Shown in pieces: positions 10,740 through 62,027 of a stretch of DNA of 64,000 nt (its first letter is position 1; the number at the start of each line of letters is the position of its first letter). The stretch lies in the NCBI GenBank assembly GCA_035760065.1, contig DASTTQ010000016.1, positions 57,071 to 121,070 of the forward strand, in the 5' to 3' direction. The DNA is from Solirubrobacterales bacterium. GTDB taxonomy: Bacteria; Actinomycetota; Thermoleophilia; Solirubrobacterales; 70-9. The notes below the pieces were generated by a model. It made no database searches. It saw only the letters and a program-made list of their open reading frames with translations, and was not told where the DNA came from. The translations under genes were made by a program, and so were the position numbers.

Positions 10740-11840
10740 ATGGCCGATCGGGTCAACAGAGCGGGGCGCGTCACCTTCCTCCCCCTCCTCGCCCTCCTAG
10801 CCACGGGGGTGATCCTCGTCTCCGTCCCTGCCGGCGCGGCTGCTCGTGACCGCGACGCGAGGAGGTTCGACAACGAGGAGTGGACGATCGAGAAGCTTGC
10901 CGCGGACATCCCGGAGGCTCCGTTCAAAGTGCGCATCGACGACGTCGCAATCGGAGAAACCCGGCTGCTGACGTTCGCCAATCGGGTCGGGCGGAGCAAC
11001 CGCTTCCCGCAGGTCCTCGTCATCTCCTCATCCGGATACATGCGGCTGAAGCCCGGTGCGGACCCGGTCCCGCCGCTGCCGTTCGGTCAGAGCCTCGTCC
11101 TCGGGCCGGCGGTCTTCGGCTCCTCCACCTCCTTCCCCGCTTCCACGCTCTTCTTCAACCCGCAGGTCCAGCAGGTGAACGTCGACACCAGCAAGCTCCA
11201 CCGCAACGGCAAAGGCACCCTCGTGATCGAAGCGATCGCTCGCGACCGGAGCCTGCCGGCAACCGACACCCACACCAATCAGGTGATGGACCTGAAGTGG
11301 AAGCTGTCCCTTGCCGAACCGACCAAGGCAAGAACGCGGCTCAGGGTCGATGGCAGCTTCCGGTTCACCGAAGCATTCGTGCCGGACCCGGTGCGGACGT
11401 CGGAGCTGCAGTCCTTCCGGCTGGTTCAGGTCTCGAGCATGTTCATCGACGGCGCTCGCCACGACGTCGACGGCTTCCGCTACCCCTCCGACAGCGGGCT
11501 CGTCAACGTCGCTTACAACCCCGGCCAGGCGAATACCCTCTTACCCGCCTCTCCCTCGCCGCTCTCCGCCACCACCCCGATCCTCGACAGCGTCCACAGC
11601 GACGATGTCGGGGCGCCGAACGGCAACACTCCCTCCTACCGGCTCCGCATCGGGGAAGCCGCGGGGCCGCTCTCGGGGCCGCTCTACCCCCGCGCGTACT
11701 TCAACGACAGCCAGGACCTGAACGACGACAACCTCGGCCTATGGATCTACCGCCAGCCGCTTGCGGCGATCCCAGCGGGGACCTCGGGACGAATCCGGTT
11801 CGGGCTCACGGCGACGGCCGATCCGCTGCCGGCCCCCTGA
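10740..11840 (+). CDS. Secreted hypothetical protein
   Basis: 366 aa with an N-terminal signal-like segment (VTFLPLLALLATGVILVSVPAGAAA). Composition is coding-like. I recognise no family. Confidence 0.6.
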   Translation: MADRVNRAGRVTFLPLLALLATGVILVSVPAGAAARDRDARRFDNEEWTIEKLAADIPEAPFKVRIDDVAIGETRLLTFANRVGRSNRFPQVLVISSSGYMRLKPGADPVPPLPFGQSLVLGPAVFGSSTSFPASTLFFNPQVQQVNVDTSKLHRNGKGTLVIEAIARDRSLPATDTHTNQVMDLKWKLSLAEPTKARTRLRVDGSFRFTEAFVPDPVRTSELQSFRLVQVSSMFIDGARHDVDGFRYPSDSGLVNVAYNPGQANTLLPASPSPLSATTPILDSVHSDDVGAPNGNTPSYRLRIGEAAGPLSGPLYPRAYFNDSQDLNDDNLGLWIYRQPLAAIPAGTSGRIRFGLTATADPLPAP

Positions 11841-18414: not shown

Positions 18415-19755
18415 ATGGCCGATCGTCTTGCCCTGTTCGTCGATCGCCGAGACGCCGGTCGTCGCCTGGCTGGGGCGCTGGAGCCCCTCCGGGGGCATGA
18501 GCTGCTGGTGGTGGCGCTGCCGCGCGGCGGCGTTCCCGTCGCCTTCGAGGTCGCAAAGGCGTTGGTCGCGCCGCTCGACATCCTGCTGGTACGCAAGCTC
18601 GGGGCGCCCTTCCACCCTGAGTACGGCATCGGGGCCATCGCCGAGGGCGGCGTCCGTTTCATCCGTCGCGACGAGGTCGAGATGATCGGCGTTTCCGACG
18701 AGGAGCTGGAGAGGGCTGTCGCGGCGGAGACCACGGAGTTGGAGAGGCGCCAGCGGCTCTACCGCGGCGCCGAAGAGCCTCTCCCGGTCAAGGACCGCAC
18801 GGTGATCCTGGTCGACGACGGGATCGCGACCGGGGGAACTGCCATAGCCGCTGGGCAGGCGCTGAAGGCCCGGGGCGCCGCCAAGGTCGTGCTCGCGGTG
18901 CCCGTCGCCCCGCCGGGCAGCGAGCAGCGCTTAGCCGACGACTTCGACGGAGTCTTCTGCCTCGCAGAACCGCACGGCTTCTCCGGCGTCGGTCAGTTCT
19001 ACGTCGACTTCGGCCAGGTCAGCGACGAGGAGGTCGCCACTCTCTTGGAGCAGGCGCGCATTCCGGGCCAGGCCGCCGCGGTGGAGAATCTCCCGGTGCC
19101 CGCAGACCCGCCGCCGATCGAACGCGCTGTTGAGATCGAGCCTACGCCGGGAGCGCGCGTGGCCGGCGACCTGCGGGTTCCGGATAACGCTGCCGGCCTC
19201 GTGATCTTCGCCCACGGCAGCGGCTCCAGCCGCCGCAGCCCCCGCAACCGCGAGGTCGCCGAAGCGCTCAACGAGGCCGGCTTCGCGACGCTGCTCTTCG
19301 ACCTCCTCACGACCGAGGAGGAACTCGACCGGGCCAACGTCTTCGACATCGGCCTGCTGGCCGAGCGCCTGCTCGCGGTCACCCGCTGGGCGCAGGGCGA
19401 GGAGGGCGTCAAGGAGCTGCCGATCTCCTACTTCGGCGCCTCGACGGGAGCCGCAGCCGCGCTGCGTGCCGCGGCTCGGGTCGGCGCCGACGTCCGCGCC
19501 GTCGTCTCCCGCGGGGGCCGTCCGGACCTGGCGCTGGAGAGCCTGGCGGAAGTCGTCTCTCCGACCCTGCTGATCGTCGGCGGCGCCGACTGGCAGGTGC
19601 TTGCGCTGAACGAAGAGGCGGCCAATCTGCTGCGCTGCGAGCACGAGGTAGCGATCGTCCCCGGCGCCACCCACCTGTTCGAAGAGCCGGGGGCGCTGGA
19701 GCGGGTCGCCGGCCTCGCGGCCGAGTGGTTTTCCCGCCACACCCGCATCGGATGA
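18415..19755 (+). CDS. Two-domain protein: phosphoribosyltransferase domain plus dienelactone-hydrolase-like alpha/beta hydrolase domain
   Basis: PRTase PRPP loop VILVDDGIATGGT. The C-terminal half has LVIFAHGSGSSRRSPRNREVAEAL...YFGASTGAAAAL, typical of DLH-like hydrolases. Confidence 0.8.
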   Translation: MADRLALFVDRRDAGRRLAGALEPLRGHELLVVALPRGGVPVAFEVAKALVAPLDILLVRKLGAPFHPEYGIGAIAEGGVRFIRRDEVEMIGVSDEELERAVAAETTELERRQRLYRGAEEPLPVKDRTVILVDDGIATGGTAIAAGQALKARGAAKVVLAVPVAPPGSEQRLADDFDGVFCLAEPHGFSGVGQFYVDFGQVSDEEVATLLEQARIPGQAAAVENLPVPADPPPIERAVEIEPTPGARVAGDLRVPDNAAGLVIFAHGSGSSRRSPRNREVAEALNEAGFATLLFDLLTTEEELDRANVFDIGLLAERLLAVTRWAQGEEGVKELPISYFGASTGAAAALRAAARVGADVRAVVSRGGRPDLALESLAEVVSPTLLIVGGADWQVLALNEEAANLLRCEHEVAIVPGATHLFEEPGALERVAGLAAEWFSRHTRIG

Positions 19756-19756
19756 C

Positions 19757-20049
19757 TCATTGTCCAGCGCTCCGAGGAGCTTGCTTCAGGACCAAGGTGC
19801 CGAACTTGCAGTCGGTCCCGATCTGCGAATGGCTGAAGAAGAGCGCGCAGGCCCAGACGGTCCGCGACCCGTGGTAGAGCTGTACGCGTACCAGTCGGCA
19901 TGGCAGCCGGTCCGCGTGAGGCCGTAGGTGAGGAGCTGGTAGTCCTCGTCCTCGATGCTCTCGATCCTCAGAGTGAGGATCACCGGCTCGCCGAGCGAGT
20001 GGGTTGCCTTGGTCTCGAGCCGCGATCTCGGAGATGACCTCTTAGGCAT
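19757..20049 (-). pseudogene. Small gene with a probable -1 frameshift (or sequencing indel) near 19885
   Basis: Track ORF 19786..20049 is coding-like with G/C-rich third positions up to ...CHADWYAY. After that, the G/C-rich third positions move to the adjacent frame (QLYHGSRTVWACALFFSHSQIGTDCKFGTLVLKQ..., stop at 19757..19759). Confidence 0.3.
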
Positions 20050-20191
20050 TTAGAAATGCCTTTCTATTCAGGTATCACCGAGGATCTCCCGAGATGCGCG
20101 GTTGTCAATGAGGAAGGACAGCGCAAATTGCGGGGTAAGTCTCAAGCGCTTAGGGTTTCCGGTCGATAGCCGCGGCTCGCTCCCTGACGGC

Positions 20192-21589
20192 TCAGGCCGT
20201 GGCGGCGAGCCCGCCGTCCCGCCGCGAGCGGATGACGACGGTGGCCCCGTGCCGCGGGATCATCGTCACGTTGCGGTGGAGGGCGCGCTCCGGGCCGGGG
20301 TCGGCGGCCTCGAGATCTAGGCGGCGGGCCATCGCCTCGAGGACGACGCGCTGCTCGGCCATCGCCAGGGCGGCGCCGAGGCAGCGGCGGATGCCGCCGC
20401 CGAAGGGCAGCCACTCGTAGGTGCCGGGCTTGCGGTCGAGCCAGCGCTCGGGCCGGAAGGCGAAGGGCTCGGGGTAGAGGTCCTCGCGGTGGTGGAGAAG
20501 GAGGATGCTGATCAGGACCGGGGTGTTGGCCGGCACCGCGTAGTCGCCGAGGCGCCAGGGCAGCTTGACGCGGCGGCCGACGATCGGCACCACCGGCCGC
20601 GAGCGCATCGTCTCGGTGATCGTCGCCTCGATCGCCTCCTCCGCCCCCTCGCCGGAGCGGACGGCCCCGATCAGCCACTCGTGGGCATCCGGGGTGCGGA
20701 CGAGCCGCTCCCAGGCCCAGGCCAGCGAGTTCGCGGTCGTCTCGTGACCGGCCAGCACCAGGGTCAGCAGCTCGTCGCGGATTTCGGCGTCGGTCAGCGG
20801 CTCGCCCTCCTCCCCGCGCGCCTGCAGCAGCAGCGAGAGGATGTCGCGGCGCTCGCCGAGGTCCTCCCGGCGCCGGGTTTCGATCACCGCGTCCATGCGC
20901 CGGTCGAGCAAGGCCCGTCCGAGTCGGGTGATGCCGACCGGCTCCTCGCGGCGGACGTTCATCAGCTCGGCGACCTGGGCGATCGGCTTGGTCGAGAGCG
21001 CGACCAGCCGCTTGATCGTCGCGCGCAGCCGCCCCTCGGCGCTCCGCGGCGCCGGCCGGCCTTCGATCCCGAAGATGCCGGCCATGATCACGTCGAGCGT
21101 GATCGCCTGCATGCGCGGGGCCAGCGCGAAGGGCCGGCCCAGCGGCCAGCTGTCGATCTCCCGCTCGGCGGCGGCGGCGATCGCCGCCGTGTAGTGCTGG
21201 ATCGCCTCGCCGTGGAACGGCGGCAGCAGCAGCTTGCGCTGGCGCATGTGGCGCTCGCCGAGCGAGGTCAGCACCGAGTCCGGCCCGACGATCGGCCGCA
21301 GCGGCGACTCGGCCGCCAGCGACGGCGCCTCCTCCGGCTTCGCGGTGAAGAGCGAGCGCGCGTCCTCGGGCAGACTGGTCACCACCAGCGGCAGCGGTTC
21401 GGGCGTCTGCAGGGCGAAGACGTCGCCCAGCCGCCGCCGAGCCCCGAAGACGAACTCGATCTGGCGCTGGTTGAAGCGCAGCAGCTGGACCGGCTGCGGC
21501 ATCCGCACGATCGGCGGCGCCGGCAGCCCGGTGGCCTCCTCGGATGCGAGGGGGCCACTCCGCAGCGTCGCGGTCTCCACGGCGCCCAC
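20192..21589 (-). CDS. Cytochrome P450
   Basis: Heme-binding loop FGGGIRRCLGAALA, EXXR (ETMR) and I-helix LAGHETT are present. The gene starts 10 nt after the ethA-like stop. Confidence 0.9.
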   Translation of the reverse strand: MGAVETATLRSGPLASEEATGLPAPPIVRMPQPVQLLRFNQRQIEFVFGARRRLGDVFALQTPEPLPLVVTSLPEDARSLFTAKPEEAPSLAAESPLRPIVGPDSVLTSLGERHMRQRKLLLPPFHGEAIQHYTAAIAAAAEREIDSWPLGRPFALAPRMQAITLDVIMAGIFGIEGRPAPRSAEGRLRATIKRLVALSTKPIAQVAELMNVRREEPVGITRLGRALLDRRMDAVIETRRREDLGERRDILSLLLQARGEEGEPLTDAEIRDELLTLVLAGHETTANSLAWAWERLVRTPDAHEWLIGAVRSGEGAEEAIEATITETMRSRPVVPIVGRRVKLPWRLGDYAVPANTPVLISILLLHHREDLYPEPFAFRPERWLDRKPGTYEWLPFGGGIRRCLGAALAMAEQRVVLEAMARRLDLEAADPGPERALHRNVTMIPRHGATVVIRSRRDGGLAATA

Positions 21590-34057: not shown

Positions 34058-36277
34058 CTATTCGATCGCTTCTTCTTCCGGCACTTCGGGCCGCTCTTCC
34101 GGCTTGCAGGCGGCCGGGTCGAGCCTGCCGTTCACCTTGAAGACGTAATCGGCCTCGGGGACGATCGTCGGCTCGGAGATCAGCAGCTTCATCGCCGGGT
34201 CGCTCTTCACCCAGGCGTAGATCGGGAACTGGTAGGGGTTCGGAGTGCCGGTGTTGTAGGGGCCGGTGTCCTCGGTGTACTGGCTCATGATCACGAATTC
34301 GTAGCCGCCTTCGTCGATCAGGCGGCGCAGCTGCGGGCAGCTGGTCGGCAGCCGGTTCGCCCCGTGCGGTCCCCTGACGCCGATGAATTCGACCTGGTTC
34401 GAGGCGTCGTTGCCGTAGAAGCCGTACTGGCCGAAGATGATCTCGCTGGAGCCGATGATCCCGATCTTGCGGTCGTGCTGCTTCTGGGCGAATTCGTAGG
34501 CTTTGCGCGGCCCGCCTTCGGCGAGGAACGGCAGCGGATTGACGTAGTGCTGATCGGCGTACTGGACCTCCTGCGCGCGCCCGAGCACGACCGCCAGCAA
34601 GACAACCCCCGCGCCGATACCGGCAACAAGGGCGCGGCTGATGCCGAGCCGGTTGCGCGCCAGCGACAGCCCCGCCGGGGCCCAGACAAGCGCCAGCGTG
34701 AGGAAGATCGTGCCGACGACGTAGGTGGTGAACCAGCGCGGCGTCGTCAGCACCGTGACCGCGTAGACCGCGGTGAGGAAGTAGAGCGTCAACCGAGCTC
34801 GGCGGTCCGGCGCCCGCAGCGGCCGGGCGATCGGCAGCATCGCCATCGCCAGCACCAGCCCCGGCGCCAGATAGCGGGTGTTGGTGAAGAAGCCGGTCGG
34901 CGAGCCCTCCTGCCCGGCTGCGGTCAGCGGCGTGAACACGTAGACGAGCGCGGTCAGCAGCGAGGCGACCGCGATCACCCGCAGGATCTTGTTGCGCGAG
35001 CGCCAGGCGATGTAGACGGCGGCGCAGACGGCGATGATCAGGATCAGCGGCCACAGGGGCCCGAAGGCGTTCTCGAGCTCGGGGAAGAACCAGCGCCGGT
35101 AGATGGTCGGTTCGAGGAGGTAGTGGGCGACGGCGAAGCGAGGGCGCGGGTCGAGCGGCATCTGGTTGGGCGTCGGCAGACCGAGGGGCCCGAACTTGGT
35201 GATCGGGATCGGGTTGCCGCCGCTCTCGATCGCCGCCCGCAGGTACCAGTAGCCCCCGACTATCAGGAGCGCCAGGCCCATCACCCAGGTCGTCGTCCAG
35301 CGCCTACCCCTGCCGCTGAAGACGATCACGCCGATCGTGATCGCCACCACCGGCACGAGGAAGGTCGTCTTCACCGAGGCGGCGAGCCCGGCGGCGATCC
35401 CGGCCACGACCAGCGGTCCCTTGTCGAGCAGCGCCGCGCCCCTCTCGGGGGCGTCCTGCACCGCCCCGGCCGCCGGCGCCCGCCGCTGGTGGCCGTTGAT
35501 CAGCAAGGCCGCGAAGGCGAGCAGGAAGGCGAGCCCCATGATGTCGTTGCGCCCCTCCCCCGGCTGCGTTTCGATCATCACCCCCGAGTCGAGGACGAGC
35601 GCTGCGGCTACGAGCGTCGCCGAGCCGACCTTGTAGGGACGGCCGATGCAGTAGGCCGCGAGCAGGGCGATCGCGATCCAGAAGAGGTTGATCAGCGGCG
35701 AGAGCCAGTCGCTCTTGAAGATCACGATCCCGGTCGCGTGGACGAGTTCCGAGGTCTGCGGGTAGAACCAGGCGGCCAGCCGCAGGGGATCGGTGAAGTG
35801 GAGGTGGATCGTCGAGTGGGTCTGGGCGATGCCCGCGGCGAAGGGCATGTGGTACCAGGTGGTGTCGCCGCCGAACATGCCGAAGTCGAGGCTCTGCTGG
35901 GCGGGGAAGGTCCACTCGGCGACGGTGAAGGAGGCGACGGCGAGGGCGATCAGCAGGGCGAGGTCCTCGACCGGCGGCGCCGCGATCTCCGCCCCGGCCC
36001 CGACGGCCTTCGAGCGCCCGAGCCAGGCCGCGGCGAGGCCGGCACCGATGCAGCCGAGGATCGTCCAGCCGAGGGTGAGGATCGAGAGCGTGCCGAGGAT
36101 CTCCAGGGTCACGACCAGCAGGGCGACGCCGATCGTCGCCTCCGCGAGCCGCGCCAGCGCGCCGCTGAATTCGGGCACGATCCAGCGCCGCAGCCAGTAG
36201 GCGCCGAGGCCGAGCGCCGCGACGATGCCGATCACGGCGAGGCAGCCGACTATGTAGGAGCCGAAAGACGGTGCCAC
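34058..36277 (-). CDS. Large polytopic membrane protein, possibly a GT-C-type (ArnT/PMT-like) glycosyltransferase
   Basis: 739 aa with more than 12 hydrophobic segments followed by a soluble C-terminal domain. The family call is tentative. Confidence 0.55.
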   Translation of the reverse strand: MAPSFGSYIVGCLAVIGIVAALGLGAYWLRRWIVPEFSGALARLAEATIGVALLVVTLEILGTLSILTLGWTILGCIGAGLAAAWLGRSKAVGAGAEIAAPPVEDLALLIALAVASFTVAEWTFPAQQSLDFGMFGGDTTWYHMPFAAGIAQTHSTIHLHFTDPLRLAAWFYPQTSELVHATGIVIFKSDWLSPLINLFWIAIALLAAYCIGRPYKVGSATLVAAALVLDSGVMIETQPGEGRNDIMGLAFLLAFAALLINGHQRRAPAAGAVQDAPERGAALLDKGPLVVAGIAAGLAASVKTTFLVPVVAITIGVIVFSGRGRRWTTTWVMGLALLIVGGYWYLRAAIESGGNPIPITKFGPLGLPTPNQMPLDPRPRFAVAHYLLEPTIYRRWFFPELENAFGPLWPLILIIAVCAAVYIAWRSRNKILRVIAVASLLTALVYVFTPLTAAGQEGSPTGFFTNTRYLAPGLVLAMAMLPIARPLRAPDRRARLTLYFLTAVYAVTVLTTPRWFTTYVVGTIFLTLALVWAPAGLSLARNRLGISRALVAGIGAGVVLLAVVLGRAQEVQYADQHYVNPLPFLAEGGPRKAYEFAQKQHDRKIGIIGSSEIIFGQYGFYGNDASNQVEFIGVRGPHGANRLPTSCPQLRRLIDEGGYEFVIMSQYTEDTGPYNTGTPNPYQFPIYAWVKSDPAMKLLISEPTIVPEADYVFKVNGRLDPAACKPEERPEVPEEEAIE

Positions 36278-52479: not shown

Positions 52480-53139
52480 ATGGGAGTCTCTTCGCCCATG
52501 CAGATCATTGAGGCGCTTGACATTGTCGGCGGCGGTCGATTTCCGAAAACTAAGACCTGGCTCCGGGCGACGGCAGACGTAGAGGCAGCGATAGCCGAAG
52601 CGGACTGGCCGTTTGGCTCTGGGAGTTTCTCGCTAAATCCGGAACCGAGGGTCGACAGGAAAGGACGGGTGGATCGCCACCCCAATGGTGTAGTGCCAAT
52701 CAAGGTGCCAATGCTCCGACACCTTGAAACGCGAGGGTGGGAAACGGAGACTTTGCCCGAGCTACCCGTGGGTTTCGAGGGTCGTGATGTTCTCACGACC
52801 GGAGATCTAGATGCCTTACTCTTCGATCGAGATCGGTACGTAGGTTTTGAGTGGGAGACCGGAAATGTCTCCTCAACGCACCGCGCCGTCAACAAGCTGT
52901 TGGATGGCATTGCCCGAGGGACGTTGAGCGGAGGCATTCTTGTACTTGCGATGCGCGCTACTCAGCGCTACCTGACCGACCGAGTCGGGAACTTCGAGGA
53001 GGTCGCCCCGTATTTCGAACTATGGAGCCGCTATCCCGTTCCAGAAGGCGTTCTGCGCGTTTACGGAGTAGGCCACGATGAGCTTGATCCGTCGGTAGCT
53101 CACATACCGAAGGGCAGGGACGGGCGCGCCCTTGGCTAG
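52480..53139 (+). CDS. Type II restriction endonuclease, BamHI family
   Basis: NGVVPIK, GDLDALL, VGFEWETGNVSSTHRAVNKLL, RYLTDRVGNFEEVAPYFEL and IPKGRDG line up with BamHI segments NGVVPIK, GPIDVYK, VGMEFETGNISSAHRSMNKLL, YYLTDRVTNFEELEPYFEL and IPKGSDG as I recall them. The catalytic D and E-x-E are conserved. Codons ending in A/T are frequent, unlike in the flanking genes. Confidence 0.8.
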   Translation: MGVSSPMQIIEALDIVGGGRFPKTKTWLRATADVEAAIAEADWPFGSGSFSLNPEPRVDRKGRVDRHPNGVVPIKVPMLRHLETRGWETETLPELPVGFEGRDVLTTGDLDALLFDRDRYVGFEWETGNVSSTHRAVNKLLDGIARGTLSGGILVLAMRATQRYLTDRVGNFEEVAPYFELWSRYPVPEGVLRVYGVGHDELDPSVAHIPKGRDGRALG

Positions 53140-54023
53140 GCCGCAATAGGTTCAGCCGGTTCGACCCAATCAGAATTCGGGTGGCGATGAAGCTCTGCCT
53201 CGCGAAGCCGCTCGACAATGACGTCGCATTTCTCGATCTCCGAGCCAATCCAATAGCGCGAATGCTGCTCGGCGACATCAAACGTCGTGCCACTTCCTCC
53301 GAATGGGTCCAGCACAATGTCTCCCTCGTTGGTCGAGAGGTGAATTATCCGCTCAAGAATCTTGGTTGAGAGCTGGTTCGCACTGCGTTTCCTGCTCTTG
53401 AATTTCCAATGGCGAACCGGGGGAACATCGGTCCATACATCGGTTAGATTGACTCCATCCGGGTGCATTGCCCCCCGATGGCCACCGTAGTCCTTAATCT
53501 CACCGCCACAGTGTCGGCAAGTCTCGATTGGCGTACGAATCTTTCGAAAGACCTTGGGCTTGCCTTTGGAGTAATAGAGGAGGCTGTAGTGAGCTGGGTA
53601 AAGCCTCTTCGGGATTGGCAGTCCAGCCTTGATACTGATCGCGATCCAGTGGCGGAAGTCAAGCCCTCTCGACATGAGGTGGGCCCCGAACAAAATATTC
53701 CAGCGCGGAAGGTTGTAGAGGAAGAGTGATCCGCCTGGCTTGAGGATTCGGACACACTCATCGAGCCAGGAGTTCCCCCAGCCCACGTACTCAGCCTCGG
53801 TGATCTCATCGTTTACCTGCGGTCCGTACACCTTGCCCAAGTTGAACGGTGGATCTGCAAACACCGTGTCGATCGATTCGTCCTTCACTCGAGACAAGAA
53901 ATCGATGCAGTCTTCGTTGAAAAGTGCCCCGTGGTGCGTTATAAGCGCGGGCTTTCGCCCCGGGCGGGGGACGATCTCAGAGAGGTCAAGAGGGGAGAGG
54001 ACTGTCATTCGCTCCTGTCGCAT
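53136..54023 (-). CDS. Beta-class N4-cytosine/N6-adenine DNA methyltransferase (partner of the BamHI-like endonuclease)
   Basis: Catalytic motif IV DPPFN lies near the N-terminus and the AdoMet motif I, VLDPFGGSGTT, lies near the C-terminus (beta permutation). It is convergent with the endonuclease gene and overlaps it by 4 nt. GAAGGAG lies upstream of ATG 54023. Confidence 0.9.
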   Translation of the reverse strand: MRQERMTVLSPLDLSEIVPRPGRKPALITHHGALFNEDCIDFLSRVKDESIDTVFADPPFNLGKVYGPQVNDEITEAEYVGWGNSWLDECVRILKPGGSLFLYNLPRWNILFGAHLMSRGLDFRHWIAISIKAGLPIPKRLYPAHYSLLYYSKGKPKVFRKIRTPIETCRHCGGEIKDYGGHRGAMHPDGVNLTDVWTDVPPVRHWKFKSRKRSANQLSTKILERIIHLSTNEGDIVLDPFGGSGTTFDVAEQHSRYWIGSEIEKCDVIVERLREAELHRHPNSDWVEPAEPIAA

Positions 54024-57725: not shown

Positions 57726-58424
57726 TTGACGCCCCACTCGCCTGGCGCTGACCAGATCGACACTCTGCTTTGGATCGGCTTCGTCGCCGCCGCGATCCTC
57801 GTGGTCGCGGTCAACGTCGCGCTGTTCTACGCGGTGCGGCGGTTCCGCTCCGAGCGCGGCGGCGAGCCGCGCCAGCTGCTGAGCGGCCGCGGCCTGCAGT
57901 TCCGCGTCGGTGCCGTGCTCAGCATCTTCGCCCTCGTCCTCTTCGTGCTCGGGGTCGTCTTCACCGACAGGGCGCGCGAAGCTCCTTCGACCGGGGAAGC
58001 CGGCCTCGCCTCGGCGAAAACGCAGCCGTTGAAGATCAAGGCGACCGGCCAGCAGTGGCTGTGGCGCTACGACTACCCGAACGGCGCCTTCTCCTATTAC
58101 AAGCTGGTGGTGCCGGTCGACACCGCGGTCGAACTGGAACTGCTCTCCACCGACGTCGTCCACACCTGGAACGTCGACGACCTGGCCCCCAAGGCCGACG
58201 CGGTCCCGGGCAAGAGCCACGAGGTCGTCTTCCGCGCCGAAGACGAAGGCGTCTACGAGGGCGACTCCTCGACGCTCTCAGGGCAGGCCTACGCGCCGAT
58301 GCGGACCGCGGTCGAAGTGGTCTCACCCGCCGAATACGAGGAATTCGTCGAAAACCAGCAAGCTGAGATCGAATCCGCCCAGGAAACCGTCGTCGGCCAG
58401 ATCGAAAACGGAGAAGTGCCATGA
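57726..58424 (+). CDS. Heme-copper oxidase subunit II-like protein lacking the CuA cysteines
   Basis: Two N-terminal TM helices and a cupredoxin-like domain (QQWLWRYDYP..., DVVHTWNV). Where CuA oxidases have C-x-E-x-C-G-x-x-H-x-x-M, this protein reads SSTLSGQAYAPM. It has a TTG start and its stop overlaps the subunit I ATG (ATGA). Confidence 0.75.
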   Translation: MTPHSPGADQIDTLLWIGFVAAAILVVAVNVALFYAVRRFRSERGGEPRQLLSGRGLQFRVGAVLSIFALVLFVLGVVFTDRAREAPSTGEAGLASAKTQPLKIKATGQQWLWRYDYPNGAFSYYKLVVPVDTAVELELLSTDVVHTWNVDDLAPKADAVPGKSHEVVFRAEDEGVYEGDSSTLSGQAYAPMRTAVEVVSPAEYEEFVENQQAEIESAQETVVGQIENGEVP

Positions 58425-60100
58425 GCCCAAGCCCGCGCCCCGAGCTCGTCGTCGACGGCTTCCCCGCCGAGCGTCCCCGCTGGATCGAGCTGGCGACCAG
58501 CGCCGACCACAAGGACATCGGCCGGATCCTCCTCTGCGGCGCCCTCGGCTTCCTCTTCATCGCCGCCGTCGAGCTGGTGCTGATGCGCCTGCAGCTGCTG
58601 GTGCCGGAAAACACCTTCCTCTCGCCTGTCGCCTTCAACCGCATGCTCTCGCTCTACGGCGCGACCGCGATCTTCTTCTTCGCCCTGCCGCTCGCCCTCG
58701 GCCTCTTCTACTACGTGGCGCCGCTGCAGATCGGCGCCCGGGGCACCGCGCTGCCGCGGCTCGGCCAGGTCGGGGTGGGGCTCTGGGTCGCCGGCGCGAC
58801 GATCCTCTACGCCGGTTTCCTCTTCACCCCCTCTGAGGCCGGCGTCAACCCGCTGCCGCCGCTCAGCGAGCTCGCCTTCCTCTCCAACAACGGCGTCGAC
58901 GCGTGGGCCGCGGCGACCGGCCTGGCGACGCTGGGCTTCGTCCTCCTCTCGGTCAACCTGGTGGCGACGCTGCGCACGATGCGGGCGCCGGGCATGGCCT
59001 GGCGACGGGTCCCGGTCTTCGCCTGGGCCGCGGCCGTCTCCTCCTGGCTGATGGTCGTGATCGGCCCGGTGCTGCTGGCGGCGCTGACGATGCTGATGAT
59101 CGACCGCAACTACGACGGCATCTTCTTCGCCGACGGCTCCGGCGGCGCACCGTTGCTCTGGCAGCACCTCAGCTGGATCTTCTTCTCGGGCACCTACGTG
59201 TTCCTGCTGATCTTCGCCTTCGGCGCGATCGCCGAGATCCTCGCCACCTTCGCCCGCAAACCCCTCTTCAACCGCAACGTGACGATGGCCTCGCTGGCCG
59301 CGATCGCGATCCTCGGCACGCTCGCCTGGATGCAGAACATGCTGACCGCGCCGATCGGGATCGGCTGGATGTACTTCGCGATGCTGATGTCGCTGGGGCT
59401 CGTCGTCCCCTTCGGCCTCGTGATCTTCAACCTGATCGCCACCGTCGCCGGCGGCACCCTGCGGATGCGGGCGCCGGTCCTCTTCGCGATCGGCGCGATC
59501 TCGGCAATCTCGATCGGCCTCGCCGCCGAGCTCGAGCAGTCGCTGGTCGGCGCCGCCTGGCACCTGCACAACACCACCGACGCCACCGCAGCCACCCACT
59601 TCGCCCTCGTCGGCGGCGCCGTCCTCGGCGGCTTCGCGGCGCTCTATTACTGGTTCCCGAAGATGACCGGGCGGACGATGGGCGAGAACCTCGCCCGCTT
59701 CTCGTTCTGGGCGATCGTCGTCGGCCTGCTGCTCGGCTTCGTGCCGCTCTTCCTCGCCGGCGCCGACAAGGGCCAGGTCGCCGACGCCTACAAGTACTTC
59801 AGCGAAAACGGCGTCACCGCCTACAACGTGATCGCCTCGATCGGCGTGATCGTCCTCTTCGTCGGTCTGCTGCTGACGATCTGCAACGCGATCTTCAGCC
59901 GCGTCAACGGGCCGGCCGCCGGCCACGATCCCTGGGGCGGCGACTCGCTCGAGTGGTTCGCCCTCTCGCCACCGGAGCCGCACAACTTCGACATCCTCCC
60001 CGACGTCCGCAGCCCGCGGCCGCTGCGCGACATCCGCGAGGCGATCGGCAACCGCACCCGACGCGAGGAAACGACTCGCGAGACGCAGCCGGTAGCCTGA
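58421..60100 (+). CDS. Heme-copper oxidase subunit I-like protein with most canonical histidine metal ligands substituted
   Basis: Collinear with A-family subunit I (DHKDIG, PLQIGA, MRAPGM, LLWQHL, WFPKMTGR, DPWGG.SLEW). However it reads LSLYGATAIFF (Y79 for the helix II His), SWIFFSGTYVF (for FWFFGHPEVY), LAWMQNMLTA (for WAHHMF) and ATHFALV (for AHFHYV). Confidence 0.85.
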   Translation: MSPSPRPELVVDGFPAERPRWIELATSADHKDIGRILLCGALGFLFIAAVELVLMRLQLLVPENTFLSPVAFNRMLSLYGATAIFFFALPLALGLFYYVAPLQIGARGTALPRLGQVGVGLWVAGATILYAGFLFTPSEAGVNPLPPLSELAFLSNNGVDAWAAATGLATLGFVLLSVNLVATLRTMRAPGMAWRRVPVFAWAAAVSSWLMVVIGPVLLAALTMLMIDRNYDGIFFADGSGGAPLLWQHLSWIFFSGTYVFLLIFAFGAIAEILATFARKPLFNRNVTMASLAAIAILGTLAWMQNMLTAPIGIGWMYFAMLMSLGLVVPFGLVIFNLIATVAGGTLRMRAPVLFAIGAISAISIGLAAELEQSLVGAAWHLHNTTDATAATHFALVGGAVLGGFAALYYWFPKMTGRTMGENLARFSFWAIVVGLLLGFVPLFLAGADKGQVADAYKYFSENGVTAYNVIASIGVIVLFVGLLLTICNAIFSRVNGPAAGHDPWGGDSLEWFALSPPEPHNFDILPDVRSPRPLRDIREAIGNRTRREETTRETQPVA

Positions 60101-60107
60101 GCTCCGC

Positions 60108-61004
60108 ATGAGCGGTGCCCAGACTGCGACCCTCGCGCGGCGCCCGGCTGTTCCGACGCTCGTCCGCGACTACCTGACGCTGACCAAGCCGAAGGTGCAG
60201 TCGCTGTTGCTCTTCACCACGATCACGACGATGTACGTGGCCGGGAACCCGTCGCTCGAGCTGGTCTTCCTCACCTGCCTCGGCGGCGCCCTCTCGGCTG
60301 GCGGCGCCGGCGCGATCAACCACGCCGTCGACCGCGACATCGACCGCACGATGGCCCGCACGGCCGACCGTCCCGTAGCTTCGGGGCGCGTTTCGGCCGG
60401 CGCCGCGACGGCATTCGGCCTCGGCCTCGGCGCCGCCTCGTTCCTGCTGCTGGCATCGACCGTGAACCCGCTGGCGGCAGCGCTTTCGCTCTCGGGCCTG
60501 CTCGGCTACGTCTGCGTCTACACGCTCTGGCTGAAGCGGACGACGCCGCAGAACATAGTCATCGGCGGCGCCGCCGGCGCGGTGCCGCCGCTGGTCGCCT
60601 GGGCGGCGGTCACCGGCGGCCTCTCCGGCATGGCCTTCTACATGTTCGCGATCGTCTTCTTCTGGACTCCGCCGCACTTCTGGGCCCTCTCGCTGCTGAT
60701 GAAGGACGAGTACGCGAAGGCGGGGATCCCGATGCTCCCCGTCGTCCGCGGCGAGGAGGAGACCCGCCGCCAGATCCTCCTCTACACCGTCCTCCTCTAC
60801 GCCGTCACCCAGCTGCCCTTCTGCGCCGGCGGCCTCGGCGTCGCCTACCTGATCCCCTCGATGCTCTTGGGCGCGGCCTTTATCTACTCTGCGACCCGCC
60901 TCTATCGCAGCCGCAACCGCCGCTGGGCGCTCCGCACCTACCTCTTCTCCCTGGCCTACCTGGCCCTGCTCTTCCTCTCGATGGCCGTCGCCGCCAACGT
61001 CTGA
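60108..61004 (+). CDS. ctaB: Protoheme IX farnesyltransferase (heme O synthase)
   Basis: LTKPKVQSLLLFTT..., NHAVDRDIDRTMARTADRP, IVIGGAAGAVPPL and FFWTPPHFWAL are typical of CtaB/CyoE. Confidence 0.9.
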   Translation: MSGAQTATLARRPAVPTLVRDYLTLTKPKVQSLLLFTTITTMYVAGNPSLELVFLTCLGGALSAGGAGAINHAVDRDIDRTMARTADRPVASGRVSAGAATAFGLGLGAASFLLLASTVNPLAAALSLSGLLGYVCVYTLWLKRTTPQNIVIGGAAGAVPPLVAWAAVTGGLSGMAFYMFAIVFFWTPPHFWALSLLMKDEYAKAGIPMLPVVRGEEETRRQILLYTVLLYAVTQLPFCAGGLGVAYLIPSMLLGAAFIYSATRLYRSRNRRWALRTYLFSLAYLALLFLSMAVAANV

Positions 61005-61191: not shown

Positions 61192-61305
61192 ATGGATCGC
61201 GAGACCGCACGCCGGAACCTGCGCGCCGGGCTGGTCGCCGGGGGCATCGCCGCCGGGATCTTTGCGCTCTCGTTCGCGGCGGCTTTCCTCTACATCGCCC
61301 AGTAG
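61192..61305 (+). CDS. Possible 37-aa single-TM peptide (below the ORF-track cut-off)
   Basis: ATG 61192 gives MDRETARRNLRAGLVAGGIAAGIFALSFAAAFLYIAQ, with stop at 61303..61305. Third positions are G/C-rich. It ends 4 nt before the next ORF's ATG. Confidence 0.3.
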   Translation: MDRETARRNLRAGLVAGGIAAGIFALSFAAAFLYIAQ

Positions 61306-61309
61306 AACG

Positions 61310-61603
61310 ATGGCCGAGCACCGACACGTTCCCGAGCCGGACGAGACGATCTACACGCCGCGCCTTTCCTGGGCGCCGGCAATCCTCGCCTTCGGGGCGG
61401 TCGGCCTCGTCTGCGGGATCTTCGCCGCCGGCTTCATCTTCGCGCCCTTCGTCTACGCGATCATCGGCGCGATCATCGCCCTGCTCGCCTTCCGCGGACT
61501 CGTCCGCGGCTCGATCCGCGACTACCACAGGCTCCCGCGCCGCCAGGAGACCCGCAGCGCGGCTCTGCCGGTGGAAACCATCAGCGGCCCCCCGCAGGCC
61601 TAG
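61310..61603 (+). CDS. Small two-TM membrane protein
   Basis: ATG 61310 inside track ORF 61262..61603 gives MAEHRHVPEPDETIYTPRLSWAPAILAFGAVGLVCGIFAAGFIFAPFVYAIIGAIIALLAF... Confidence 0.5.
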   Translation: MAEHRHVPEPDETIYTPRLSWAPAILAFGAVGLVCGIFAAGFIFAPFVYAIIGAIIALLAFRGLVRGSIRDYHRLPRRQETRSAALPVETISGPPQA

Positions 61604-61610
61604 AAAGTCC

Positions 61611-62027
61611 TCAGCCCTGGCTCTGGCCGGGTAGGGACATATCAGAAGTCGCTCCATCCGAGGTCCAGCACCTGACGATGTCGCGCATCGAGAGGACGCC
61701 GACCGCATCGCCGGCGTCGAAGACGACGAGGTGGCGGACGTTGCGCCGCGACATCTCCGCCGCCGCCCGCTCGAGGCTCCAGTCTGGAGCGGCACTGAGG
61801 ACTCCCTCGCTCATGTGATCGGCGACCCGCTCGTTGTCGGGACTCTGGCCGCGGGCGACGGAGATCAGCAGGTCGCGCTCGGTGACGACCGAGGGAGTGG
61901 GCATCTCGCCGTCGATCACCAGCGCCGCGCCGGTCCCCTTCTCGACCATCTTCGCCGCCGCCTCGCGCAGCGTGTGGGACGGGCCCACGGTCAACGTGAT
62001 CTCCGACATTCCGTCCCTCACCTGCAT
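61611..62027 (-). CDS. CBS-domain pair protein
   Basis: 138 aa with two CBS repeats (ITLTVGPSHTLREAAAKMVEKGTGAALVID...; VLSAAPDWSLERAAAEMSRRNVRHLVVFD...GVLSMRDIV). Confidence 0.8.
   Translation of the reverse strand: MQVRDGMSEITLTVGPSHTLREAAAKMVEKGTGAALVIDGEMPTPSVVTERDLLISVARGQSPDNERVADHMSEGVLSAAPDWSLERAAAEMSRRNVRHLVVFDAGDAVGVLSMRDIVRCWTSDGATSDMSLPGQSQG

Follow-up and report, generated by a model that had tools for sequence, protein, structure and literature searches.

The 64,000-nucleotide stretch analysed here (the window; contig DASTTQ010000016.1 of a Solirubrobacterales bacterium, with positions counted from the first base of the stretch) contains two overlapping plus-strand genes whose products are homologous to subunits II and I of the aa3-type cytochrome c oxidase, CtaC and CtaD, and which lie directly upstream of ctaB, the gene for heme O synthase. 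It is this CtaC/CtaD-like pair, and what has become of the residues that hold heme and copper in its relatives, that is considered below.

57726..58424, plus strand: subunit II (CtaC)-like protein, 232 amino acids, with two transmembrane (TM) helices and a cupredoxin domain (Pfam COX2, E 1e-17)
58421..60100, plus strand: subunit I (CtaD)-like protein, 559 amino acids, a 12-helix COX1 homolog (Pfam and NCBIfam profiles, phmmer, MAFFT)

Cofactor ligands and proton channels of the subunit I- and II-like proteins

The open reading frame (ORF) at 58421-60100 (+) starts with ATG and runs uninterrupted for 559 amino acids, with a G+C content at third codon positions (GC3) of 0.96, like that of the other genes in the window, which has an overall G+C content of about 70%. 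Its start overlaps the stop of the subunit II-like gene (ATGA). The product is identical to NCBI HEU4706108.1, which carries the name "cbb3-type cytochrome c oxidase subunit I", and its 232-residue partner is named a hypothetical protein. Pfam COX1 (PF00115) matches the 559-residue protein at 292 bits (E 1e-86) over profile positions 1-435 of 436, a full-length 12-TM match that marks it as a subunit I homolog of the heme-copper oxidase (HCO) superfamily, and its best structure matches in phmmer are the M. smegmatis CtaD chains (PDB 7rh5/6adq, E 7e-82), which are collinear with it over residues 23-539; the frameshift-free collinearity that had been claimed from an earlier examination of the sequence by itself (the sequence-only reading) is thus borne out. 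Scores against models of the functional subunits are low, with the 559-residue protein reaching 370.9 bits against a cutoff of 670.75 for the NCBIfam CtaD equivalog model (TIGR02891) and 326 against 880 for the actinobacterial aa3 model (NF050116), and with the subunit II-like protein reaching 128.5 against 147.7 for CoxB and falling far under the cutoffs for CyoA/QoxA.

The ligand columns were read from three alignments, one made by phmmer against the M. smegmatis CtaD structures and two made by MAFFT with canonical sequences, and all three agree that one of the six invariant histidines is kept, while the other five columns are occupied by Y79, S256, Q305, N306 and A391. The low-spin heme a histidine of helix II is replaced by Tyr79, and the CuB histidine pair is replaced by Gln305-Asn306. 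The GHPEVY motif reads FFSG-TYVF, in which the remaining CuB histidine has become Ser256 and a one-residue deletion takes away the channel glutamate, so that the His-Tyr cross-link motif is found neither in its A1 form (GHPEVY) nor in its A2 form (YSHPAVY). In helix X, the heme a3 histidine is Ala391, and the low-spin heme histidine is retained as His393. The sequence-only reading had listed the His-to-Tyr, His-to-Ser and His-His-to-Gln-Asn replacements and a single surviving helix X histidine, and the profile and structure alignments agree with it at every one of these columns and identify the survivor as the low-spin ligand. It had also held that the cross-linked tyrosine position differs, which is true of the MAFFT alignments (Val260) but not of phmmer, which places Tyr259 there; the ambiguity is moot, since the CuB histidine is absent.

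The losses extend to the proton channels and to the surroundings of the hemes, where residue roles, which we take from established knowledge of A-family oxidases, were placed by motif equivalence. The D-channel aspartate has become Gly108 and the two channel asparagines Gly115 and, in helix II, Tyr97, and GARDxAFPRLN reads GARGTALPRLG; these positions correspond to Asp132, Asn139 and Asn121 in the R. sphaeroides numbering. The threonine and lysine of the K-channel are Phe331 and Val334 (PTGxK reads PFGLV), and the protein therefore has neither the D- nor the K-channel residues of a functional A-family oxygen reductase. The Arg-Arg pair that contacts the heme propionates is replaced by Ala454-Asp455, a conserved loop tryptophan by Val142, and invariant glycines of helix IX by Leu367 and Glu370. 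Several small invariant residues that line the core are enlarged (G49A, A52L, S173F, G367L and G370E), and Arg56, the counterpart of the formyl partner of heme a, is kept. The residue set of a nitric oxide reductase (NOR), comprising, as described in bioRxiv 10.1101/2021.10.15.464467, a high-spin heme histidine, three FeB histidines and a glutamate, is not found either, with none of the four histidines present.

The partner protein has lost its copper site as well. Its CuA motif is GDSSTLSGQAYAPM, compared with GQCANLCGRGHARM in syntenic canonical orthologs, and the ligands Cys/Cys/His are replaced by Ser/Ser/Tyr; where a CuA site follows the pattern H...CxExCxxxHxxM, and the canonical orthologs read CxxLCGxxHxxM, the window protein reads H...SxTxSxxxYxxM. 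Judged from the aligned residues, the ligand sets for CuA, heme a3 and CuB are all gone from the pair, and heme a keeps one of its two ligands. Lacking these ligands, the two subunits are predicted not to hold heme a3, CuB or CuA by the established mode of binding, which agrees with what had been suggested for the heme a3-CuB center from the histidine columns of subunit I, and they have no proton pathways. An AlphaFold2 (AF2) model of the CtaD-like protein has low confidence (pLDDT 41, pTM 0.31; 40 homologs, all at least 83% identical), although the helical pattern is visible in it.

Conservation and origin of the degenerate genes

Searched against 5.8 billion proteins, the CtaD-like protein matched 120 clusters at 83-100% identity, all 556-563 residues long and coming from soil metagenomes and Solirubrobacterales metagenome-assembled genomes (MAGs), and Y79, Q305, N306, T392, H393 and F394 are invariant across them. 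A scan of species-representative genomes gave 26 loci with 55-86% identity, including about 24 species-level orthologs of uncultured Solirubrobacterales that, down to 55% identity, have open frames and keep the substitutions, with His393 present in 23 of 24. In close relatives, too, this position is not occupied by an intact gene. Some 140 independent sequences have an open frame, as does the window, and assemblies that come from separate projects share identical replacement residues.

In codon alignments of the 11 fully sampled loci, the median NG86 ratio of nonsynonymous to synonymous substitution (dN/dS) is 0.39 for the CtaD-like gene and 0.44 for the subunit II-like gene, compared with 0.22-0.34 for neighboring genes and 0.16 for the active A2 subunit I; because dS is compressed by the extreme GC3, these values are best judged relative to the neighboring genes. 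Among 145 residues that are invariant in the 24 orthologs, 112 show synonymous codon variation. When 23 degenerate orthologs (76% mean identity) are compared with 26 canonical ones (73%), the mean site entropy is 0.60 in the former and 0.68 in the latter. Constraint is relaxed at residues 81-120, 261-280 and 361-380, the places of the one-time channels and of the helix that held heme a3, while it is strongest in helix VII and its loop (WMQNMLTAPIGIGW), where the entropy is 0.18 versus 0.77 in canonical orthologs; residues 61-80 and 141-160, both in loops, and the two termini are also more constrained. By these codon and entropy measures, the CtaD-like gene is evidently under purifying selection, and selection on the pair is as tight as in the active orthologs, which, together with the substitutions shared by the 120 clusters and about 24 orthologs, answers the question of clade-wide conservation that the sequence-only reading had raised.

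That the gene is a decaying pseudogene, or the pattern an error of sequencing, assembly or alignment, is almost certainly wrong: the score far under the CtaD equivalog cutoff and a few nanopore-derived MAG loci with frameshifts in neighboring genes (the cox2-like gene of L019 and split matches in L027) would fit it, but it is refuted by the open frames, by identical replacements in separate projects, by the dN/dS, GC3 and synonymous variation given above, and by the concordance of the three alignments.

The degenerate loci (L002-L027) have a common gene order, TrxR - LPG synthase - PAP2 (-), followed by cox2-like, cox1-like, ctaB, a 37-residue ORF and a two-TM ORF of 90-100 residues, and then by a CBS-domain gene (-). 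The same order is found at 31 other Solirubrobacterales loci (L028-L058 and L074), in which the position-matched gene encodes a canonical A1-type CtaD that is 38-41% identical to the window protein and has all six histidines, GHPEVY, the D- and K-channel residues and a partner with intact CuA. Since the flanking block is shared with these loci, the CtaD-like gene is, from gene order and alignment, the positional ortholog of the Solirubrobacterales A1-type (aa3) subunit I, and this is supported by a tree, by outgroup identities and by deeper orthologs. In a neighbor-joining tree, the degenerate sequences form one long-stemmed clade that is sister to the canonical Solirubrobacterales A1 CtaD, a placement that may be affected by a long-branch artefact. 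The degenerate proteins share 33-38% of their residues with a Chloroflexi outgroup and the canonical ones 53-56%, which indicates strong acceleration on the degenerate stem.

Deeper syntenic orthologs, P0122 (L082), P0124 (L083), L023, P0127 (L085) and P0145 (L086), differ in the ligands that are left. P0122, P0124 and L023 lack all six histidines, and at the positions of Tyr79 and His393 such orthologs (45-55% identity) have F/F, L/W or G/G. In P0127, CuA of subunit II is intact, and the helix II histidine and one CuB histidine are kept, while P0145 keeps one CuB histidine and the heme a3 histidine; both look like intermediates or independent losses, and together with the canonical syntenic orthologs, they make it possible to work out in which order the losses occurred. 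Other COX1 homologs in the representative library (P0153, P0171, P0199 and others) also have unusual ligands, for example both low-spin histidines without the CuB and heme a3 histidines, and may represent additional HCO derivatives that await characterization. Complete MAG chromosomes with the degenerate gene mostly measure 2.5-2.9 Mb (OY970238.1 is 1.57 Mb), and the three complete genomes with the canonical ortholog 3.2-3.3 Mb, which hints at genome streamlining in the lineage.

Neighboring genes and the second oxidase

Downstream of the pair, the window continues with the following features.

60108..61004, plus strand: heme O synthase CtaB (NCBIfam heme o synthase model, 351.6 bits against a cutoff of 246; TIGR01473, 330 against 210)
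61192..61305, plus strand: 37-residue single-TM ORF, present in degenerate and canonical loci (gene call, orthologs)
61310..61603, plus strand: 97-residue two-TM ORF, the positional counterpart of a 73-78-residue ORF of canonical loci
61611..62027, minus strand: CBS-domain protein, a neighbor in degenerate and canonical loci (Pfam CBS, synteny)
62155..62862, plus strand: di-heme c-type cytochrome, placed here in degenerate-oxidase loci (Pfam Cytochrom_C matched twice, synteny)
62903..63880, plus strand: heme A synthase CtaA of the COX15 family (Pfam COX15-CtaA, 89.8 bits; match to PDB 6a2j)

The ctaB gene starts 7 nt past the stop of the subunit I-like gene, and its product is 66-75% identical even to CtaB of the canonical-oxidase loci. 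Going by the gene layout, the full-length pair is predicted to be translationally coupled and co-transcribed with heme O synthase. A tighter cox1-ctaB spacing was considered as a trait of the degenerate lineage and ruled out, as the spacing is equally tight in canonical and degenerate loci. The 37-residue ORF is 44% identical to the ORF of canonical loci (E 1e-12) and weakly resembles the assembly factor Coa3, with a sub-threshold match to Pfam Coa3_cc (E 0.0019). The canonical counterpart of the 97-residue ORF is weakly subunit IV-like (Pfam Cyt_c_ox_IV, E 0.007, also sub-threshold) and contains the motif IHLPGPS, which reads IYTPRLS in the window protein; pairwise BLAST of the two found no similarity, so that homology is taken from position and motif, and the 97-residue protein is regarded as having diverged together with subunits I and II.

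CtaA is encoded within 10 kb in 21 loci of the degenerate family and in none of the 31 canonical loci. The window CtaA has an asparagine (IEYTNR) in the place of His60 of B. subtilis CtaA (IEWSHR), and this asparagine is kept in the family loci shown. A tblastn search of the 64-kb window found no canonical oxidase paralog. An A2-type operon, cox2-cox1-cox3, sits 7-8 kb away in most loci of the degenerate and canonical groups alike, and its subunit I (634 residues, FWFYSHPAVY, Pfam COX1 499 bits) has all six histidines and the channel residues. On the Logan contig L088 from the same sample, which encodes an identical CtaA protein, a minus-strand COX3 gene follows some 1.4 kb beyond the end of the window, and the A2 operon of the window genome would therefore sit beyond base 64000. 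The suggestion that a canonical oxidase be looked for thus led to one near most relatives and, through COX3, just outside the window. With CtaB scoring above its equivalog cutoffs and CtaA matching heme A synthase, heme A is presumably made for the A2 enzyme. In L003, an IS21-family IstB gene (18757-20193) lies downstream of ctaA, where other loci hold the A2 operon, which suggests a rearrangement in that genome.

Several features of the window lie apart from the oxidase genes. A 2548-residue ORF at 1275-8921 (-) combines SpvB, TcdB middle-N/middle-C, FG-GAP and RHS-repeat domains and looks like a TcB/TcC-like fusion of a Tc toxin. At 52480-54023, a low-G+C island (0.59 versus about 0.70) encodes a BamHI-like restriction endonuclease (52480-53139, +) together with an N4/N6 DNA methylase (53136-54023, -), which is probably a horizontally acquired restriction-modification system. 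ORFs of 739 residues (34058-36277, -) and 366 residues (10740-11840, +) have a coding-like GC3 and no Pfam match at E <1e-5.

Interpretation and possible roles of the retained pair

From the sequence evidence as a whole, the CtaC/CtaD-like pair is very probably a redox-dead but selected remnant of an aa3 oxidase, and the pseudo-oxidase reading offered earlier stands on the ligand loss, the purifying selection and the presence of a separate canonical oxidase. Electron acceptance, oxygen reduction and proton pumping would all have been lost from the complex, and the neighboring canonical A2-type oxidase would carry respiration, using heme A from the adjacent CtaB and CtaA. The dead pair, probably together with the co-diverged two-TM small subunit, would persist as a non-catalytic membrane module, whose most plausible role may be that of a scaffold that stabilizes or organizes heme O and heme A synthesis and hand-over, or the assembly of the oxidase. 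As a specific role, scaffolding or assembly is a tentative assignment made by analogy, while the statement taken whole, that a CtaC/CtaD remnant without redox function, transcribed together with heme O synthase, is kept for such a role, is one toward which we lean, if only slightly.

The analogy is with Acetobacter, and it is the best, though indirect, argument for a scaffold, because the same ctaB-side arrangement occurs there in an unrelated phylum. As summarized briefly in Degli Esposti et al. 2023 (PMC10715153, citing Matsutani 2014, BBA 1837:1810), Acetobacter species have a deranged COX1-like protein that lacks all of the conserved metal-binding residues and adjoins ctaB in a remnant cytochrome c oxidase gene cluster; another heme-copper oxidase respires, and a structural function that stabilizes CtaB was proposed for the COX1-like protein. 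The family resembles that description in that the window protein has lost five of six ligands, P0122, P0124 and L023 have lost all six, a functional-looking ctaB follows 7 nt downstream, and an A2 oxidase is encoded nearby. Acetobacter belongs to the Alphaproteobacteria, another phylum, and the comparison was made by description only. Relative to what that account describes, the loss in Solirubrobacterales reaches subunit II, the family spans many species and is under purifying selection, and its main clade has a Tyr/His pair. An origin independent of Acetobacter is likely, given the difference in phylum and the orthology to actinobacterial A1 CtaD. The sequence-only reading had held that known variants change one or a few ligands and never nearly all, which is too strong in view of the ligand-less Acetobacter protein beside ctaB, as far as that protein is described in PMC10715153. 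A literature search for a cofactor-less HCO family found no description for Actinomycetota and turned up Acetobacter as its sole precedent, and the Solirubrobacterales pair is thus an independent and far better supported cofactor-less oxidase remnant rather than a wholly new kind.

The comparison with enzymes that work places the pair closest to the A1 (aa3) CtaD, with which it shares full-length collinearity (E 7e-82 to the PDB chains and 38-41% identity to syntenic orthologs), the ctaC-ctaD-ctaB operon with its small ORFs and the same flanking genes, and many structural Pro, Gly and Trp residues together with the C-terminal DPW...LEW...SPP..HNF. Unlike this enzyme, it is missing five of the six histidines, the CuB-Tyr unit, the residues of both channels (D and K) and the Arg pair for the propionates; its subunit II partner has no CuA, and it falls below the CtaD cutoffs. 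The cNOR/qNOR, NOD-like qNOR, eNOR, bNOR, sNOR, gNOR and nNOR families belong to the same superfamily and have an altered CuB/Tyr site, but they keep both hemes and a three-ligand metal site, whereas the window protein is without five histidines and has no FeB Glu/His set. In a survey of HCOs, the active-site histidines were fully conserved in all families but gNOR, which replaces one of them, is presented there as the first family to do so, and has a cupredoxin subunit that is itself CuA-less (bioRxiv 10.1101/2021.10.15.464467). A cupredoxin domain without the CuA cysteines is also found in subunit II of the E. coli CyoA-type quinol oxidase, but that subunit has a fully functional subunit I partner and quinol-site residues, while the subunit I partner in the window is cofactor-less.

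A number of observations weigh against a scaffold tied to CtaB. The ctaC-ctaD-ctaB order and its tight spacing are ancestral and occur in canonical loci too, so that adjacency is no specific argument for a CtaB-related role. Fusions of CtaB/UbiA to the degenerate CtaD were not found among the unusually long homologs, which held COX1 domains only. The former CuB helix is the most conserved segment, and the main clade shows no variation at Tyr79 and His393, both of which would also fit a new ligand-binding function in place of a passive scaffold. The oxidase inventory was drawn from locus neighborhoods (10-kb flanks).

One alternative is that the CtaD-like protein binds a single heme through Tyr79 and His393 at the former low-spin site and takes part in heme handling or sensing, for example as a transient holder of heme O or A between CtaB/CtaA and the A2 oxidase. 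His/Tyr ligation is common among heme-trafficking proteins, both residues are invariant in the 120 clusters, with His393 in 23 of 24 orthologs, Arg56 is kept, and ctaB and ctaA are adjacent. The two positions also covary in the deeper lineages (Y/H, F/F, L/W and G/G), which shows that they are coupled but is equally explained by direct side-chain contact in a heme-free core, and same-operon orthologs with F/F, L/W or G/G, which cannot ligate heme, are equally retained. The surroundings of the site are unfavorable too, in that the propionate Arg pair is Ala454-Asp455, with the Asp invariant, the conserved loop tryptophan (position 142) is gone, and small residues of helix I have become bulkier (G49A and A52L). 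We regard heme binding of this kind as unlikely; the different cofactor arrangement that the sequence-only reading had allowed for is weakened, with this low-spin site as the place where it might yet hold. A more specific form, the most attractive of the new tasks to which the module might have been recruited, in which the CtaC', CtaD' and small-subunit module became a membrane relay for heme O/A, with Tyr79/His393 as a transient heme site, and couples CtaB and CtaA to the A2 oxidase, is likewise improbable. Should it hold, a heme-copper oxidase scaffold would for the first time have become a heme chaperone, and there would be an explanation for why two phyla have convergently kept dead COX1 genes next to ctaB.

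Another alternative, which also seems doubtful to us, is that the dead pair is a structural placeholder at the aa3 position of the bcc supercomplex, needed for the stability of bcc, with cytochrome c carrying the electrons away to the A2 oxidase. In actinobacteria, bcc and aa3 occur as obligate supercomplexes, and the PDB matches are structures of these; it is on the loops and termini, not in the core, that constraint is kept or raised, the locus includes a gene for a di-heme cytochrome c, and an analogous proposal exists in which a deranged bc1 complex is retained to stabilize Complex I (PMC10715153). However, qcr genes are absent from the window and from all retrieved loci.

Finally, the CtaD-like protein might have taken on a different activity without redox chemistry, for example that of a transporter, channel or receptor, built around strongly conserved polar side chains where the active site used to lie (Gln305, Asn306, Thr/Ser256, Tyr259, Glu370 and Asp455). 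The strong conservation of helix VII and its loop, family-specific invariants that include Asp455, Leu367 and Ala302, and a long stem branch followed by tight constraint speak for such a change. Against it, the sequence reveals no coherent polar pathway that is new, glycine or hydrophobic residues now stand in the known proton pathways, the neighboring genes hint at no substrate, and several of these positions are variable among deeper orthologs (QS, LN and E/K). We consider it quite improbable.

Under the favored reading of a redox-dead, selected remnant, the public names of the family, "cytochrome c oxidase subunit I" or "cbb3-type oxidase subunit I", wrongly present it as an oxidase, and metabolic reconstructions of the widespread soil Solirubrobacterales consequently count an oxidase that does not work. 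The family would also be a natural experiment, in which a subunit I/II core was stripped of the ligands for heme a3, CuB and CuA, of one low-spin heme ligand and of both proton channels and has nonetheless remained under selection as tight as that on the active enzyme, and such a core would point to a second, non-redox use of the heme-copper oxidase scaffold. Together, Acetobacter and Solirubrobacterales point to a recurrent functional tie between an apo-COX1 and heme O synthase, which may bear on how heme O and heme A are delivered to oxidases, a process that is still poorly understood.

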